Shown piece after piece: positions 3,808 through 56,300 of a stretch of DNA of 64,000 nt. The position numbers and the translations under genes are program-made. The first letter of the stretch is position 1, and the number at the start of each line of letters is the position of its first letter. The DNA comes from Octopus vulgaris (Eukaryota), in NCBI GenBank assembly GCA_951406725.2, contig OX597837.1, forward strand, positions 47,554,001 to 47,618,000, in the 5' to 3' direction. The notes under the pieces are model-generated. The model was not told where the DNA came from. It saw nothing but the letters and a program-made list of their open reading frames with translations, and searched no databases.

Positions 3808-6800
3808 TCTCCGAGTGATTTGCATTTTATTTCACCTTCTGACCGGGTCTCAAAGGCACGTATATATTAGATGGAAACTGTCTGAGAATATAGGCAGTTG
3901 GTGTCAGTGCAATTTTTTGAGTCTCATAGTTTATAGGTTTTCCAGGGATCTGGTCAAGAAATTTGTCACTGCCTTTCTTAATCATTCCAAGGGCACCTAC
4001 AACAACAGGGATGGTTTTGGTTTTTAATTGCCACATCCTAGATATCTCAATTTCAAAGTCCTTATATTTCGACAGTTTTTCAAATTAATTTGCTGAGAGG
4101 TTTCTATCAATAGGCACTGTCATATCAATCAACAGGCATGTTTTTTGTCTTAGGTCTTTGATGACAATGTCTGGTCTCTTATCATTTATTTGCCTATCTA
4201 TATGTATCCTATAATCTCATAGGATAGTAACATTCTCTCCTTCAGTGACTGGTTCTGGATGGTGTTCGTACCAGTTCTTAGGGTACTGAAAATCATTGTA
4301 ACATAGTTTCCGGGTGAGGAACCTCTGATCTTGTGCTGCGAAGATAAATATTTCTGTTTCAGATTTCAGATCATCACTCTACAGCCACTGATGGATTCTT
4401 CTTCTATCTACATCAGCTTCCTCAGCTTGTTTGGCGTATTGCCCATGCAATGGTTTTTCTTGCCACAGTCTCCTTCAAGTTTTCTTGTTTGGCTTTTGTT
4501 TTATACTTTTTTGCTGCCTTAGTGGGTGGTGTGTCCTTCTTATCATCATCATAACCAGGAAGGTCAAACTCTTGTCTACATTTATATGTCTCCTTTGAGA
4601 TTAGGTGCAGTTTCTTATTCTGTTTGTGTTGCCTCACTTAGCTGCATGATCTGGTCGGTGTTACGCTGGATGTACACCTGAAGTCCTCTCGTAATCGTTT
4701 TATAGGATGTTTCAAGCTGGATTAGACCGCTGCCTCCTTCCTTTCGTGGGAGATAGAGCTTGGAGATGTCCGATTTTGGGTAGTGCATCCTGTTTAGTGT
4801 CATCAGTTTCCTGGTCTTTATGTCCATATGCTGGAGATCACTCAGATTCCAGTTGATAACATTAAGGCTATACTGGACAACTGATACCACCAGGGAGTTT
4901 ATAGCCGCAATTCTATTTTGAGAGTCCAGTTCAGTATTCAGATCCATTCTGATACGTTTGTAATATTCTTTCCTGATCTCTTTCATTGATCCGTGTTGAA
5001 TCCCTTTTCCTTAATGTACCCCAAGATACTTACAGAAACCTTTTTGGTCCAAGTCATTGATAGATGCATTATGATCATGTTGGATCGCGGTATTAGATGT
5101 CAGTTTACCACGTTTGAACGAAGCTTTTGCACACTTGCCAATGTGGGATCATATCATAAGCCTTACGATAATCGATCCATGACTTGGCCAAATTAGTTTT
5201 TATCCTCTTGCAATCTCTAAGTACAGTTTTGTCGAACAGTAGTCTCTGCACTTACGCTTGAAACGCTTCTGCTCATGTGGCAGGACTCCATCCCCCCCCC
5301 ACCCCAGATGTTCGTACACTGACTCTGCGGCTATTCCAGTCAATAATTTCCACATAAGTGGCAAACAGGATATCGTATTGCTTTTTTTGATGTTTTTCAA
5401 GCACAGCACTGTCCTACCCAATGTCAATCACTCTGGTCAGCATTTAACAAGGTGTTCAGTTGTGCAGCTGTTCGTGCATGACATTCACCAAATCTTTTGA
5501 TCCAGTAGCCTTGTTCTCCATCTGGTCCCGGGGCCTCCCAGTTGCTCCTTTTTGTCTTTTGTTTTTTGTGATTTCCTTCACTTCCCTAACTGAAATTACT
5601 AGTTTTGCCTGCTTTGGACAGATTACTGTTTGTTTCAGTTCTTGCAACCATTCAGCATCCTTCTTGTGCTCCTTGTCTTTGCTCCAGATGTCACTCCAAA
5701 ACATTTGATTTTCAATGTTATCTGGTATCAACTTTTCATCTGTACACTCTCCATTTATTTCTTTGTAGAATCTTTTATGATCTACTCTGAATAACCTGTT
5801 CTGCTGGTATCCCTTCATTCTTTGATCATATGTTACCATGTTTGCAACGAGGGGCTGTTTCAGTTCCCCCATTATTACTTTCAGGTCCTTTCTTTCAATA
5901 TTATACTTCCTGTTCAGCGCCCTGTATTTTTGTTCGTTTTTCAACTCCCCCTTCTCTTTTCGGTCTAACAGAGAAATGCCTTTCTCGTGCATATCTAACC
6001 CCGCCTATATTCTTCTTTTCCACCACGGATCTTTTCTTTTGTCACTCCCATTATATTTCTTTTTCTTGACATCAACACCCACATTTCCTGCTACCACAAT
6101 ACTTGCTGCTTTGATCAAATTATTTGTTTCTGTGATGCTTTTTTGTTCTGATATAATCCAGAATTTCATTCACATTTTTCGTTTCTTGGTTCAACTTCCA
6201 CCGATCAACCATTTTAATGTTGCAAATAACGTCGCTACCGTTCTCCTGTAACTTTGCTTTTATTCTGTCGCAGATTGCCTTTTGCCCATCTGTCATGTCA
6301 CCATTAGTTTTAATGTCTTCTTCCAGACCCTCTATATTTTTCTCATCGAGCAATCTATCACTGTTCCTTTCCTTCGGTTTATTAGAGATCTCATCTCTGT
6401 TTTCTGCTATGAGCTTACTTTTATCAGTAGGAACTGTATTTTCATCGTTTCCTCTGCTGCTGTTTTCCAAAACCGGTCTTTTGATAGCTTCGAGCTCTAT
6501 TGCTGTGAACCAGCGATTTTTTCCTATTGTTCTGGCTCGATCACATAATCTCTGTTCCGCAAGTCGAAACAATCCTCTTTCTCTCCATTGATCATACATA
6601 CGTTGTCGGTATCCCCTAGTATGAGAACCATTTTCGTCTGCAGGGTTACTCAGGTAGTAACACTCCATGACCACAGCATTGACTTGTTTGTTCCATCTAC
6701 TCCGCGTGTGCTGCTCCGTTGCTGGATAACGACAGACTTGAGTCGGACCAGTATCTCTGGGCCTGCCGGGTGCAACACTGTCGCCATCAAAGGCTTCAGT

Positions 6801-6955
6801 TCGTTACCACCGTTATTCACAATATTTTATTTTTTTCCTTGTCACTCATATGAGGTAGCAGTTATCAGGTTGCGCAGTTACCAGTGTTTTTATTGTGACA
6901 CCATCACTTGATGTAACATCGATCAGGACATGAGGAGATTCCAACCGCTTCCTTT
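3808..6955 (-). mobile_element. Older, degraded near-full-span Dong/R4-clade LINE with internal deletions
   Basis: N-terminal VMECYYLS..GYRQRM..W..RG..EQRL (6120-6674), [14 protein letters not shown] (5200-5427), LYLPRKEGG.GL (4615-4986), C-terminal IPVVVGALG..QKIAL..AYILR (3827-4036); TAA/TGA repeats at both ends. Confidence 0.88.
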
Positions 6956-7316: not shown

Positions 7317-7580
7317 CTGGGGTGTAAACATAATTAATTAGTTTACGAACTTATGTGTTTATGATGTGTACTCAATCGGATATAGTCCAAAACTTTGTCA
7401 GTTTTTTTAGGCTCCATTTGTTGTCTTTATTCTCGGTGTTTTTGGATAGATTTCGGAACAGTTTTTATCGCTTTCACATGTTACACGTCCCCGGCTATTA
7501 TTATTATTACTGTTGTTGTTGTTGTTGTTGTTGTGGTGGTTGTTGTTGTTGTTGTTATCATCATCATCATTATTATTATT

Positions 7581-8971
7581 GAGTGAGAGAGCAGTGCATG
7601 CCATCAAAGTGACACTAGGTGACAAAGCCGGAATACTGCAGGGAGACACACTCGTCCCATTTCTTTTCATCATTGTTGTTGATTATGTGCTACGTATGTC
7701 AGTTGATACCATCTCTGGCAAGGGCTTTGAAATAAAACCAAGAAGAAGTTCCAGACACCCAGCTGAGTACTTGACAGACACTGACTTTGCTGACGACATC
7801 GCTCTTATCAGTGATTCTCTCTCCAATGCCCAGTCTCTTTTACAATCTCTTGAACAAGCCTCAAATTGTGTAGGTCTTTACCTCAATGAGGCCAAAACTG
7901 AATACATAAACAAGTGCCTGTCCAACAGTGATTGCATCATCCATACTCTCAACAATGCGCCCTTAAATATGGTTTCTGATTATAAATATCTTGGCTCATA
8001 CATATCATCATCTGGAAAAGACTTTCTAACTAGAAAGGGTATGGCCTGGTTAGCCTGTAATGACATGCATAAGATCTGGTCATCAAATCTAAGTAGAGAC
8101 TTCAAACTTGAAATCTTCAAAGCCACAGTAGAACCAATTCTATTATATGGCTCAGAAACCTGGACGTTATCAAAGAAGCTTGAGAGGCGGTTGGATGGAA
8201 CCTACACTCGCCTCCTTATGAGAGCTCAAAATCTCTCGTGGAAGCGCCATCCAACCAAAATGCAAATATATGGGAAACTACCACCTGTGTCATCTCTTGT
8301 GAAAGATAGGAGAGTCCAGTTTGCTGGATATTGTTGTAGAGCTGAAAAAGAAGTAATTTCTACTCTTCTCCTCTGGAAGCCATCTACTCGCAATACCAGA
8401 GGGCGCACACTCTCCTACCCTGATGTAATCTCCAGGGATACAGGCATCCAGCAACAGGACCTCCGTAATGCCATGATGGACCGTGAAGTCTGGCGTTGCA
8501 GGGTAAATTCCATTGTCTCGACCACGGTCGAACAATGATGATGATGATGACACTAGGGTAAAATATACGAAGCCCAGTATACCCATCAGGACTACCCGTC
8601 TGATAAGGGTACACTAGGCTCATGCATCACAACCATGTGTGCGCGACATGGTGATCTCATATCAAGATAAACAGCACATGACCTTGCAGGTGGAGCCCAG
8701 TTAGAATTTTCATCTGGTCGAGTAACCCATCCCGCTCAAAAGGTCCCTGAATAAGGATTGTTTAAGGATGATAAACAAAACACTGATGTTTCCAGAGGTG
8801 AATTATTCAAACCCCAAAGAATCCTTCTCAACATATGGCTATGATGCTCCCCCACTACTTCTGCTCGTGATCAGAGATGCACATATTGTCAGCCACTAAG
8901 GGACATGCTCAACTGGTTAAGGTCAAACAACTGACAAGCAAATCTGTGATATTGAGCAGAATATTTGCTGT
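7581..8971 (-). mobile_element. Non-coding retroposon or LINE 3' UTR-like repeat flanked by (TAA)n, split by an RTE insertion
   Basis: 7581-7619 continues at 8558-8971 once the RTE and one TSD copy are removed; TTA repeats on both sides. Confidence 0.55.
7620..8547 (+). mobile_element. 5'-truncated RTE-clade LINE with an open RT C-terminal half, (TGA)n tail and 10-bp TSD
   Basis: GILQGDTL.PFLF, FADDIALI, YKYLGS, LLYGSETW, MMDREVWR in one stop-free frame to 8538; TGACACTAGG at 7610-7619 and 8548-8557. Confidence 0.93.
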
Positions 8972-10628: not shown

Positions 10629-11471
10629 TAGCAGAATTGCCCGGCGTTGCTCGGGGCTGAATTGCTTGAAAGTACTGTTAATGATTGCACTGAATTATGA
10701 TGATTATTCAGGCAAATATTGATATAAGTTTACGGTGGGAGATAAGTACTTAACGATAAAACGTGTGCCATTGCATTGTTTTGGGGGAACCAAATTTCTA
10801 ATGAGCATTATAGGAGCACCAACTTTAAGTTTGAGAAAGTCTGGTGGTAGTCCGGGGTGCTCAAAGGAATTTAGTACCTCTATTGGATAGTTGATGACGT
10901 CCTCTGGGTCAGGAGTTGTATCGATAGACTGATATACATAGACTTCCCCAGGAATGAGTTTTAGCATTTCATCATTAATATGGTGAACAGTTTTATTCCT
11001 CGGGGCCAGTATAGCCTTTTTGCCAATCCAATCCATATTCTGATAATTAGCTTGTAGATCTGGGAACACTGCATCTCTGAGATCAGAAGGCGTCTTAACA
11101 ATGGTACAAATGGAATCGATGGCAATATTACCATTTTCATCCCCTGGTATTTTGCCTTCGCCAAGTGCAAGGAGGGTGTGAGGAAATGCTGCTGATGTGA
11201 TATTACGTCGCATATGAGCACGCATATTGGTGTGAAGTTTGAGAGTTACTTCCTTTATTTAAAAAAATATGCATTAAAATGGAAAAAAATGATGGTAAAT
11301 TATTTGTAAAATCATAGACTCATCGTAGACGCGCGCTAATACCCAGAAGGGCTCGATATGAATCACGACTATAAGATACCCGGTTTTGGTTAAACTGCAT
11401 TGCAAAATGTGGGAGTAGTTAGGAATCTAAATCGGAGTAGACAGACACACAACCTTTCTTTTATATATAAA
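10628..11471 (-). mobile_element. Internally deleted Helitron carrying a PIF1-family helicase fragment
   Basis: ORF 10704-11225 with NMRAH, AILAPRN, LKLKVGAPIMLIRNL, CNGTR; minus-strand 3' hairpin CCCGagcaacgcCGGG followed by CTAG at 10628-10631. Confidence 0.9.
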
Positions 11472-15004: not shown

Positions 15005-15738
15005 GTAACAACAGCCGTTCGGCATAATCCCACAGGTCCGAAATGGTTGAACACTGCATGAGTGCGTGCAGAACGGATTCGTCACTCTGATCGCATCTCG
15101 GGTAAGTCGGTCCGGTGTGTCTCGAACCGTGCCTGTAGAGCTTATCCCGAACAGGTAATGCTTCTCGATAGCACTGTCAGGCCAGGGATCTTTGATGATT
15201 TTCCATAGGTCACAGCCCGAAAGTTGTCCTGAACAGGCGGGTCAGGTGTATCTCGTCGACGCCCAGATTCTGCCCGAGAACGTCGTCGCACCTCCCCTCC
15301 ACTAACCCTCTATAGAACGCCTTTGTTGTAATGAAGTCGCACAAGTTTGGTCCCGGACGACAGAGTTGCTTGAGAGCAACACGACACTCGCGGTGCCATT
15401 CGCCCAGCCTCGGTCTCTGCTTGATCCACGACTGCAGTTCGGTCAAGGAGACGAGTTGCAGGAAAGCGCGCCGCACAAACGGCGACCACACCTGTTCACC
15501 GTCGTCTATGAAGCGCCGGAGATGTCGCAGTCTCAGCGCATGTCTCCGCATCATCAACCACGGTATGCCTATCCCTCCATTTAGCGGGTGTTGACAGCAA
15601 ATGGATCGGCTAACCATCGGAACGCTTCCCTTCCACAGGAAGCGGAAGAGTATGCGTTCCAGTTTGGTGATGGTAGGGTCGGGACAAGGCACGACGGTCA
15701 GGTGGTATTCGATGACGGATGCGATGTACGCCCGACCT
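15005..15738 (-). mobile_element. L1/Tx1-clade LINE ORF2 C-terminal fragment
   Basis: [25 protein letters not shown] thumb region in ORF 15210-16085, then a degraded LPVRDKL..C...ESVLHALMQC zinc knuckle near 15050-15170. Confidence 0.8.
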
Positions 15739-15841
15739 TTTAGGTAGATAGATAGATAGATGGATGGATGGATGGATGGATGGACGGACGGACGGACGGA
15801 CGGACGGACGGACAGACAGACAGACAGACAGACGGACAGAC

Positions 15842-15913
<72 letters not shown>

Positions 15914-16566
15914 GGATGGATGGATGGATGGTTGGATGGATGGATGATGGATGGATTGATGGATGGATTGATGGATGGATGGATGGATGGATAGATAGAT
16001 AGATAGATATGCATATGTGTATACGTGAGTGTATTTGAGCGCGTATGTACACGTCTGTATGTATACGTATATTTATGCACATCATTCTAAAAAAAAAGAT
16101 TTATGCATGTATGTATGTATGTATGTATGTATGTATGTGCATGTGTGTATGTATGAATTGTATGTTTGTGTGATTGTGTGTGTATGCGTGTGTGTGCGCG
16201 CGCACTCGCGTAGAAGTGTCACCGAGTATAGATCGTATGAATGCCACAGTCTCATCTAAAATATATTAACCAACCCCGATAACATTTACCAAGAAATCTT
16301 TACAGATGTAAGGGAGACAAAAATGTGTTGATTTTTCTCAACTGTCCTGATATCTCCCAGTAAAAATAGTAAAAGTTGATGGAAGTGAAGAGAACGAGGG
16401 ATGTTCTGTGACAGCAAATAGAATGGAATAAAGTTTATGTTGCGGAGGAAGGAAAAAGAAGTCTCGATTTCCGAGAAGAATTCTTTTTTGGAACAAATTA
16501 AAATCTGAAAAGAGACGTGGTGTGTAGGAGGGCTGCTTTATCTTATCTCTATATTTTATATATATA

Positions 16567-17024: not shown

Positions 17025-17419
17025 ATTTTGACTGCGGCTATGCTGGAGCACCGCCTTTTGTCGAGCAAATCGACCCCAAGAGTTATTCTTTTGTATGCCT
17101 GTTACTTATTCTATCGTTCTTTTATGCCGAACCGCTGTTACGGGAACATAGACATACCAACGTCGGTTGTCGAGCGATGTTGTGGGGACAAACACGGACA
17201 TACAAACACACACACACATACACACACGCACACACACACACACATGCACACACACACACATATACGACGGGCTTCTTTCAGCTTCCGTCTACCAAATCCA
17301 CTCACAAGGCTTTGGTCGGCCCGAGGCTATAGTAGAAGACACTTGCCCAAGGTACCACGCAGTGGGACTGAAACTGGAACCATGTTGTTGGTAAGCAAGC
17401 TACTTACCTCACAGCCACA
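17025..17419 (-). mobile_element. tRNA-derived SINE, family A, with internal (CA)n
   Basis: Minus-strand A-box/B-box head, CCTTGGGCAAGTGTCTTCT core; homologous to 37051-37464. Confidence 0.85.
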
Positions 17420-18704: not shown

Positions 18705-18761
<57 letters not shown>

Positions 18762-18883
18762 CACAATCAAGGAACGGCCATAATAGGCCATTCGCCCACT
18801 AGAAATAACAGCCAAAAGCTTTAACCGCAAAATAACGTCAATTCCGTAAACCAGGAGAAAATTAAAAAAACATTTACCCTGTA

Positions 18884-18990
18884 ATTTCTTAGACGATGCA
18901 CCGTTTCATCTACTGTTTAATGGAAAACTAACCTGATTAAATTAAATCAAGCCAATCTACCATAGGCCCTTAGATTCATCAGTAAGAAAT
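18884..18990 (-). ncRNA. Type I hammerhead ribozyme (minus-strand copy)
   Basis: Reverse complement of 19213-19319. Confidence 0.85.
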
Positions 18991-19212
18991 AGCCAAGCCG
19001 GAACAGATATTTTTCACGAGGCATTCTCGTTGCTACCTCGTCAATATCTGACCTAAAATTTTCAAATCGTCGCACTCGCGCCAAATTTATCGGCAGCAAA
19101 TAAATATAAGCCGCCGATTCCATTACGGAATTAACCAGAAAATTCATAATTAATCAATATAGGGTGGCAAAAAAACTTTTGTAGAATTCTTTTGCCACCA
19201 TCCGGCTTGGCT

Positions 19213-19319
19213 ATTTCTTACTGATGAATCTAAGGGCCTATGGTAGATTGGCTTGATTTAATTTAATCAGGTTAGTTTTCCATTAAACAGTAGATGAAAC
19301 GGTGCATCGTCTAAGAAAT
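19213..19319 (+). ncRNA. Type I hammerhead ribozyme with canonical core and extended stem II
   Basis: ATTTCTTA-CTGATGA-ATCTA..(58 nt)..TAGAT-GAAA-CGGTGCATCG-TC-TAAGAAAT; predicted GUC cleavage after 19311. Confidence 0.87.
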
Positions 19320-19603
19320 TACAGGGTAAATGTTTTTTAATTTTCTCCTGGTTTACGGAATTGACGTTATTTTGCGGTTAAAGCTTTTGGCTGTTATTTC
19401 TAGTGGGCGAATGGCCTATTATGGCCGTTCCTTGATTGCGATGTTGAACTTAAAAATGGTTTATGACTATTTAATTTTTTCCCACTAGGCCGCTGGTGGC
19501 AAAAGAATTCTACAAAAGTTTTTTTGCCACCCTATATTGATTAATTATGAATTTTCTGGTTAATTCCGTAATGGAATCGGCGGCTTATATTGTTCCTCTC
19601 CCC

Positions 19604-19799
19604 ATTGTTCCTCTCCCCATCGCTTGACAACCGATGCTGGTGTGTTTACGTCCCCATAATCTAGCGGTTCGGCAAACGGTATCGATATAATAATTACTAG
19701 GCTTACAAAGAATAAATTCTGGGGTCAGTTTGCTCGACAAACGGTGCTACTCCAGCATGGCCACAGTCAAATGACTGAAACAAGTAAAAGAATAAAAGA

Positions 19800-55239: not shown

Positions 55240-56300
55240 AAAATCAAAAACTGCAAATTTTATGCTTCTGCCAATTTATTGTGGAATGTTTGGTTCTTAG
55301 TTCAATGTGACCGCCATTTGCTTTCCTTCCCAGTTTAATCCGTTTATGAAATAAAACGCACGTCTTAACGATTTCTTCCTTTTTCATTTTACTGAACGCT
55401 CGCTCGATGGAAGCCTTCAATGAAGACACACAGTTGTGAGAAGTTGGATATTGCTTCGGCTGCGTCCCATAGCCAAAACTCACACAGATTCAAATCTGGC
55501 GAGTTAGCGGGCCAGATACCTTTAGGAACAAAGATGGCAAATTCCTTCTTCAAAAATTCTTGCACTCTTTTCGAAGAATGTACAGAGTACTGCACGAGCA
55601 TGACTCGATTTGCAAAATAATGCTTTCTAATCCAAGGCAACAAAACCTCTAAGATTTCGAGGTTCTCTGCTATGTTGATTTTATGACCCGCTTCAATAAA
55701 ATGAGGAGGCATCAATTTCCCATCACTTACAACAGCTCCAACGACCATAATGGAAGCCAGATTCTTGTTCTGCATAGCTGAAGGAACTTGAGAGGGTCGT
55801 ACGCTATCACTCGTGAGTTTTGACGGTTTGTAACTTCGTCTATCACGAATTTCTTTTCCTTCGCGAAGACTCGGATGTCTTCGTCACGATGTTTCAAATA
55901 ACTAAAAAGTTTGGGATTTCTTTCAGCTTCAATAGTTTTGGAGCGGATAATTAGGATGTTACAGTGTCTCCCCATGTATGATTTCACATGAAGGTCTTGT
56001 CTCACAGCCCTTGAAATGGTCATTTTACTGATTCCTTGATCTTGAGCCAACTTCGCTATTGATTTTGATGGGTTCGACTCAATCGATCTTTCAAGTTCTG
56101 CTAAGAAGCGAGCTGTGCGTTTTCGGTCATTAGGAAAACTGTGAAGCTTTCTCAGGATATCCTGACTTTTCTTCAAATCGGGTAACAACTCTAAAAGCAA
56201 TAGATTTGACATACTTTGTGGCTCTAACAATCTCCCCAGCACTTCTGCCGGCGCGGAATAATTCGGCAATTACACTTCTACGGTTTTTCGACCGGTGTTT
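55240..56300 (-). mobile_element. maT/DD37D-like Tc1/mariner transposase pseudogene
   Basis: N-terminal HTH, VFA.EKKFVID..NRQNSRV, SIMVVGAVVSDGKLMP, WPANSPDLN..FWLW; frameshifted. Confidence 0.8.

Follow-up and report, generated by a model that had tools for sequence, protein, structure and literature searches.

A young 491-nt hammerhead retrozyme in Octopus vulgaris and its two-armed insertions in (AT)n microsatellites

Our data indicate that the window, a 64,000-nt stretch of Octopus vulgaris DNA (contig OX597837.1, positions 47,554,001 to 47,618,000), probably carries a truncated copy of a young 491-nt retrozyme without coding capacity, likely written by the enzyme of a Penelope-like element (PLE) from one RNA with two starts 106 nt apart. 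This reading builds on the unit, its hammerhead motif, its arrays, its target, its fixed ends (one short and one long per insertion) and the haplotype shared by the two arms, all observed directly. An earlier note on this DNA had recognized the unit, the hammerhead and the youth of the copy, and had missed the (AT)n target, the fixed ends, the PLE layout and the abnormal right end.

The 491-nt unit and its hammerhead motif

Self-BLAST of the window located two inverted pairs exactly where interleaved inverted repeats had been described (18760..19591). Positions 18760-19002 are the reverse complement of 19201-19442 with 241/243 identities, the mismatches being one T-run indel and one substitution, and 19103-19200 are the reverse complement of 19494-19591 with 98/98. 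The earlier note had called the insertion recent on the strength of these near-identical arms, and we likewise judge the copy to be young. The segments sum to 491 nt (A', 242; Y, 51; B', 98; X', 100), which we number from position 1 at 19201. A search of the animal's own genome (2.8 Gb) gave 1491 candidates, the best 40 of which were scored, with at least 188 matches at 93-100% identity. All 35 top-scoring loci fetched show the 491-nt period head-to-tail, with up to 11 units per arm, and two neighbouring units in one array are equal at 490/491 positions. The proposed template of about 491 nt, tandem or circular, thus has its counterpart in genomic arrays with exactly this period. A circle, which the note had treated as one way to meet its requirement, is not itself required, because head-to-tail arrays exist in DNA and an uncut tandem transcript gives the same permutation.

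We found by sequence in each arm the single canonical hammerhead per unit, with GUC site and 8-bp stem I, that the note had described (Table 1). In the right arm, stem I pairs ATTTCTTA (19213-19220) with TAAGAAAT (19312-19319), and the core comprises CTGATGA (19221-19227), GAAA (19296-19299) and GTC (19309-19311). Stem II (ATCTA/TAGAT, 5 bp) closes a 58-nt extension, and stem III is short, with a palindromic TGCA loop. The GUC site occupies unit positions 109-111, with the predicted cut at 111/112. Rfam gave no match at the gathering score within the window, likely because of the long stem II extension. Since the window locus has one hammerhead per strand, double cleavage could not release a unit-length RNA from it.

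Table 1. Features of the insertion, by window position, and sampled PLE families, by locus
Feature	Coordinates	Strand	Remarks
(AT)n target microsatellite, left junction	18740..18759	.	Sequence; family ends abut (AT)n
Left arm, 441 nt	18760..19200	sense on -	Unit positions 294-491, then 1-242
Type I hammerhead motif, left-arm copy	18884..18990	-	Predicted cut after C at 18892; sequence only
Hairpin	19004..19048	-	Unit positions 444-490; circular fold, helix probabilities 0.87 and 0.99
Hairpin, 13 bp	19163..19199	-	Unit positions 295-331; circular fold; left arm 5' end at its base
Head-to-head junction of the arms' 5' ends	19200..19201	.	Blunt, without microhomology
Right arm	19201..19591	+	Unit positions 1-391
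Type I hammerhead motif, right-arm copy	19213..19319	+	Predicted cut after C at 19311
Hairpin, 8 bp, with motif common to unit and family B ORF start	19409..19430	+	In register with short end
106-nt tail between short (242) and long (348) end positions	19443..19548	+	Internal in right arm
15-nt tandem duplication over abnormal right junction	19589..19618	+	Sequence
SINE-like repeat, 3' half	19604..19790	+	Very abundant; unrelated to unit; without usual upstream (TA)n(TG)n part
PLE family A	L141-L170, L266		Very abundant (39418 candidates)
PLE family B	L261:3263-7198; L262, L263, L264 (G000:C17, C22, C5, C19)	+ (L261)	Very young
PLE family C	L265:1971-5045; L201-L230	- (L265)	Young; short and long ends in (AT)n

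Hammerheads tolerate changes at N7 as well as a C to A change at the cleavage base. Core variation in the family is mostly of these two kinds (N7, 41/226 units; cleavage base C to A, 61/241), every other core position showing at most 6 deviations among the aligned units, so that, as far as sequence can tell, variation is concentrated at tolerated positions; these counts are not independent events, because the units are related by descent. The loop variant TATA retains the palindrome (14 stretches), and at the outer pair of stem II 7 loci have a compensatory change and 10 an A-A mismatch. At one locus (L060), five of the nine units that span the site have T in place of G as the first GAAA base (position 96), a change that is likely inactivating and that likely spread within this one array. 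Among stretches matching both anchors, 258/259 have normal length across the cleavage site; we found no template-jump scars, and rejected end-to-end jumping between linear monomers.

The circularised unit folds in the sense orientation to -146.7 kcal/mol, compared with -109.6 +/- 6.0 kcal/mol for 40 shuffles (z = -6.1), and the antisense strand folds much worse (-97.8 kcal/mol). The predicted fold is branched, with 57% of positions paired, and it recovers both hairpins named by the earlier note, which had called the monomer hairpin-rich, with helix probabilities of 0.87-0.99. The active hammerhead core is not formed in the lowest-energy predicted fold of the circle. A viroid-like rod-shaped circular RNA was considered and rejected: the fold is branched, the antisense strand folds worse, and there is one hammerhead per unit, on the sense strand.

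Elements at 110 loci contain no ORF of 250 aa, and 18760-19591 contains none of 150 aa; the RT plus GIY-YIG ORF of an autonomous PLE is absent from the 491-nt elements at these 110 loci. The note had named copies leading into a PLE ORF as evidence against its reading, and none of the 110 fetched loci does so. Older relatives of the unit, at 69-78% identity and with the same end positions, occur at L088:1834-1969, L116:5753-6116, L066 and L078.

Layout and target of the insertions

Exact-pattern searches of the genome found at least 422 junctions between the short end (242) and an AT run and at least 750 between the long end (348) and an AT run, both counts being lower bounds, with none for either control. 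Insertions in (AT)n thus number at least 750, the window copy among them. We sorted the window and 110 loci into 117 clusters, comprising 86 two-arm insertions joined head-to-head (minus-then-plus), 25 single arms and 6 complex cases; no cluster has arms tail-to-tail. One short (236-248) and one long end (341-356) are present in 74/86 two-arm insertions, the other 12 have one abnormal end, and none has the same end class twice. In all 74 insertions with two canonical ends, the 106-nt tail is at one end only. Part of this set, the C1 sample, was not chosen by length: on contig C1 it takes in 53/54 of the long-end hits, together with 22 regions that contain 23/24 unpaired short-end hits, the other two being already in the locus set. 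These loci were picked on one end, and only the other end tests the rule, which holds in 35/35 and 15/15; among the 35 loci picked by similarity it holds in 24/24.

Switch points between the arms are spread over the whole unit. The note's placement of the switch at the base of the 19163-19199 hairpin is correct for the window copy (19200/19201) and does not extend to the family as a fixed feature: switches fall inside the corresponding hairpin (295-331) in 24/116 arms, a modest excess over the 8.8% expected, and in 8/68 in the chromosome-C1 sample, which is not significant.

At the outer 3' end of its left arm (18760) the window copy has the canonical short end of the family; its right arm has neither the long end nor an (AT)n flank. 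The simplest reading is probably a deletion with repair, which would have removed the last part of the right arm (at least 448 nt if it started at 348) together with the TA flank. The 15-nt duplication at this junction is likely a repair scar. Alternatively, the right arm may have had an aberrant start at 391. The insertion is flanked by the same abundant SINE-like repeat in opposite orientations (17027-17400 and 19604-19790), a repeat that carries an internal (TA)n(TG)n tract. By eye, other parts of the window resemble fragments of LINE-type reverse transcriptase ORFs (811-2980, 5456-6803, 7450-8538 and 15210-16100), a Helitron-type helicase (10704-11258, minus strand) and a Tc1/mariner transposase (55389-56269, minus strand).

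Known relatives and a candidate helper

The 491-nt family is a new family of a known class, the non-LTR retrozymes, with the known PLE insertion layout. Its units each have a type I hammerhead, form head-to-tail repeats dispersed over many contigs and encode no protein, and its insertions have an inverted 5'-truncated head-to-head copy (86/117) and a microsatellite target. Metazoan non-LTR retrozymes, as described in the accessible text of PMC7229834 and bioRxiv 10.64898/2026.07.22.740005, are likewise non-coding tandem units of low GC with one type I hammerhead each, dispersed as mono- to multimers, that co-occur with PLEs and are proposed to be mobilised by them. The unit measures 491 nt here, compared with 170-400 nt (PMC7229834) and 51-972 nt (bioRxiv 10.64898/2026.07.22.740005). 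Unlike the retrozymes in those texts, the octopus family, described here from genome sequence, has a 58-nt stem II extension and inserts into (AT)n as a pair of inverted arms whose two outer ends are fixed. Circles have been shown for other retrozymes, and tandem cDNA copied from circles has been proposed (PMC7229834). The 2026 preprint links retrozymes to PLE pLTRs and reports cleavage in 1/9 tested elements (bioRxiv 10.64898/2026.07.22.740005). The word 'inverted' is absent from the accessible text of PMC7229834, and in the literature outside Repbase, supplements and subscription journals we found no paper on two-armed retrozyme insertions; relevant material may be contained in Supplementary Figure S9 of PMC7229834 and in the tables of the 2026 preprint.

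PLE insertions are described as pairing an inverted 5'-truncated copy with a tail that is confined to one end (PMC8557442, PMC3846280), and how PLEs make these arms and tails is called unresolved in PMC8557442. In vitro, the purified anole PLE protein (Poseidon) cuts AT-rich DNA on both strands and extends both, and on the RNA it starts at two internal sites, which delimit the tail (PMC11167929). The 491-nt family shares with endonuclease-bearing PLEs (PMC8557442, PMC3846280, PMC11167929) the head-to-head arm, the one-end tail, the microsatellite target and a hammerhead upstream of the ends. It differs from the elements described there in having no ORF, a canonical rather than minimal hammerhead, and arms that are multimers of a short unit. 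Its tail is 106 nt long, compared with 30-40 nt in the same papers and about 55 nt in families B and C of the octopus genome. Non-autonomous Chlamys PLEs such as MRC1 are also non-coding, multicopy head-to-tail and PLE-made, but these have their helper's 3' sequence, whereas the 491-nt unit has a short motif only, plus a hammerhead (PMC8557442, as far as its accessible text goes).

ORFs beside the fetched loci led us to four PLE-type families, which we sampled at 30, 30, 30 and 25 loci; the helper comparison covers these four, and further families may be unsampled. Family B combines open frames of 1312 codons with (AT)n flanks, and its two ends are about 55 nt apart; its copies are 98-100% identical among 106 scored, and its two-armed loci have one end type at each side. 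Protein-coding PLEs with one short and one long end in (AT)n occur both in family B (L174, L177, L261 and L263) and in family C (L210, L211, L222 and L224), the two families being 54% identical. Pfam detected GIY-YIG in family C and RVT_1 in family A, and no family for the family B ORF. The family B frames have a long Asn-rich insert near the N-terminus, the family B pLTR has a variant minimal hammerhead-like motif, and the 3' UTR contains microsatellites. In family C, as in the retrozyme, an ATG precedes the short end by 32 nt. Family A has a minimal hammerhead-like motif near its end, and one (TA)n end was seen.

By blastn the unit has no significant match to any of the four sampled families. 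The 50 nt that precede its short end can be aligned with the corresponding stretch of family B, with identity at 26/36 positions, a match reached by 0/5000 shuffles (families C and A, p = 0.16 and 0.81) that was noticed by eye first and tested afterwards, and is therefore post hoc. The distance from TGGC to the AT run is 29 nt in both, and the family B stretch contains the first ATG of that family. The hairpin bearing this motif (19409..19430) is a candidate enzyme-binding site. Together, the match and the equal spacing make family B or a relative a candidate helper, and only that; hits of a degenerate motif search are not independent support, since that search took its pattern from the retrozyme and from family B.

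That PLEs mobilise animal retrozymes has so far been proposed from co-occurrence and pLTR similarity. In the octopus, hundreds of young insertions combine a strict one-short/one-long rule with one haplotype per insertion, beside an intact (AT)n-targeting PLE. The family thereby names an RNA, two start positions, a target and a candidate enzyme for an in vitro test of twin-priming and of circle versus linear templates. Because the class and the layout are already known, the gain is a testable mechanism and not a new kind of element; our contribution consists of the strict rule for the ends, the tests for a single template and the stop pile-up at the cut site.

Template and writing of the two arms

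We compared arms in the 68 insertions with at least 60 shared sites, leaving out homopolymer zones. The arms of one insertion differ by a median of 0.22%, compared with 3.0% to other loci, and no foreign arm is closer than the partner arm in 50/68. Nine alleles in eight loci are private to their locus within the sample, and there every unit of both arms carries them. In 15/74 insertions the two arms end at one and the same template point, against 4.2 expected (0/5000 permutations).

Stops are also frequent at 112-140, just 3' of the predicted cut, where hammerhead-cut RNA would begin. In the C1 sample, 18 of the 86 arms reaching these positions on the first pass stop there, whereas four control windows have 5/67, 7/90, 6/96 and 6/102 (6-8%), and both arms tend to stop there together (5/7 vs 2/26, p = 0.0016). 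The shared haplotypes, the common stop points and the stops 3' of the cut suggest that one RNA likely templates both arms and that part of the template pool was probably cut linear RNA. Alleles common to both arms could alternatively come from arm-to-arm gene conversion. Later passes stop at 112-140 in 6/39 cases in the C1 sample, and in 10/117 over all loci, compared with a 3.6% background (p = 0.009). The comparison of first with later passes, meant to separate a circle from a linear multimer, showed no significant difference (p = 0.63 in the C1 sample, and 0.24). An excess that persists on later passes fits partly cut linear multimers, pausing on a circle or AT-rich joining, and AT-rich microhomology or an enzyme pause may underlie the excess as such.

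In the mechanism that we propose, tandem copies would be transcribed and would partly self-cleave. A PLE protein would bind the 210-350 region of the RNA, cut TA DNA on both strands, and prime cDNA at 242 and at 348. Each cDNA would extend as far as the end of the RNA, or less far if the enzyme falls off, and end-joining of their 3' ends would create the head-to-head junction. The template pool would be mixed, ribozyme-cut or broken linear RNA giving short twin arms, and circles or uncut multimers giving multi-unit arms. An RNA circle is possible for the 491-nt unit, and for the multi-unit arms we consider a circle and an uncut multimer about equally likely. Among the listed data sets containing the unit, none is recorded as RNA and the 14 that may be RNA are all contigs; four runs mapped to a tandem stretch and four to the window gave coverage, but neither ends nor strand nor level. 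A more specific version, to which we give only tentative credence, has a PLE with two active sites writing one arm per start from a single RNA, twin arms arising by hammerhead run-off and long arms by rolling on the 491-nt circle, with the intact family B PLE as the helper, which would recognise the motif located some 29 nt upstream of the short start. If this version is true, the family preserves the PLE integration step as a fossil record, and its short twin arms are genomic evidence of in vivo cleavage, which RNA-seq did not reveal for the anole PLE.

Could every insertion be a rolling-circle copy of a monomeric 491-nt circular RNA, following the model of PMC7229834? Arms of up to 11 units, the private alleles fixed in both arms, the seamless cleavage site, the conserved hammerhead and the strong sense-strand fold all fit such a template, as does the lack, in 40/48 multi-piece loci, of any allele that only some of the units (two or more) carry; circles have been documented in coral, mussel and axolotl retrozymes (PMC7229834). 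A circle, however, is endless, yet in 15/74 insertions the two arms stop at a common point, and stops accumulate 3' of the hammerhead cut. At L061, a transversion is confined to the two terminal units, which calls for a template with unlike units or for conversion. In L038 a 4-unit block is present exactly twice, which looks like a duplication at the DNA level, and so long arrays need not come from rolling. We consider it doubtful that circles alone made the family.

The converse account dispenses with the circle: linear tandem transcripts would be partly cut by the ribozyme, and arrays would grow by unequal exchange in DNA. The excess of later-pass stops 3' of the cut and the mirrored allele of L061 speak for it, as do block-periodic alleles in L038, L060, L103 and L122, and in vitro the main substrate of the anole PLE is uncut RNA (PMC11167929). 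Against it, source arrays would already have to be uniform for each private allele, mirrored alleles are few (2 loci), and the account, taken alone, leaves selection on the ribozyme unexplained. We find this account no more than tentatively credible as the whole story. The periods within one arm are 4, 3, 2 and 2 units at L038, L060, L103 and L122, respectively, and represent higher-order repeats forming in young arrays. We rejected these periodic alleles as proof of multimeric circles in L038, given its block duplication, and found them imperfect in L060.

Rather than starting separately, the second arm might be a fold-back copy of the first cDNA, by self-priming at palindromes (PMC3846280), with the tail produced through endonuclease resolution (PMC8557442). 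Such copying would account for the shared haplotypes, and the mirrored allele of L079 fits a copied error; small palindromes also occur at junctions where the arms meet at the same position (L047, L063, L079, L135 and L137). Mirror-length arms, though, are found in only 16/74 insertions, the longer arm being the short-end one in 33 and the long-end one in 25, and the two fixed ends were shown as RT start sites in vitro (PMC11167929). That either arm can be longer argues against simple fold-back as the general route, while some palindromic junctions do fit it; overall, we regard it as improbable. An assembly artefact or chance palindrome is hardly credible: the right junction in the window is bridged by no listed contig, which is evidence neither way, and for the family this explanation is refuted by the same layout, with varied junctions and intact fixed ends, at 74 loci.
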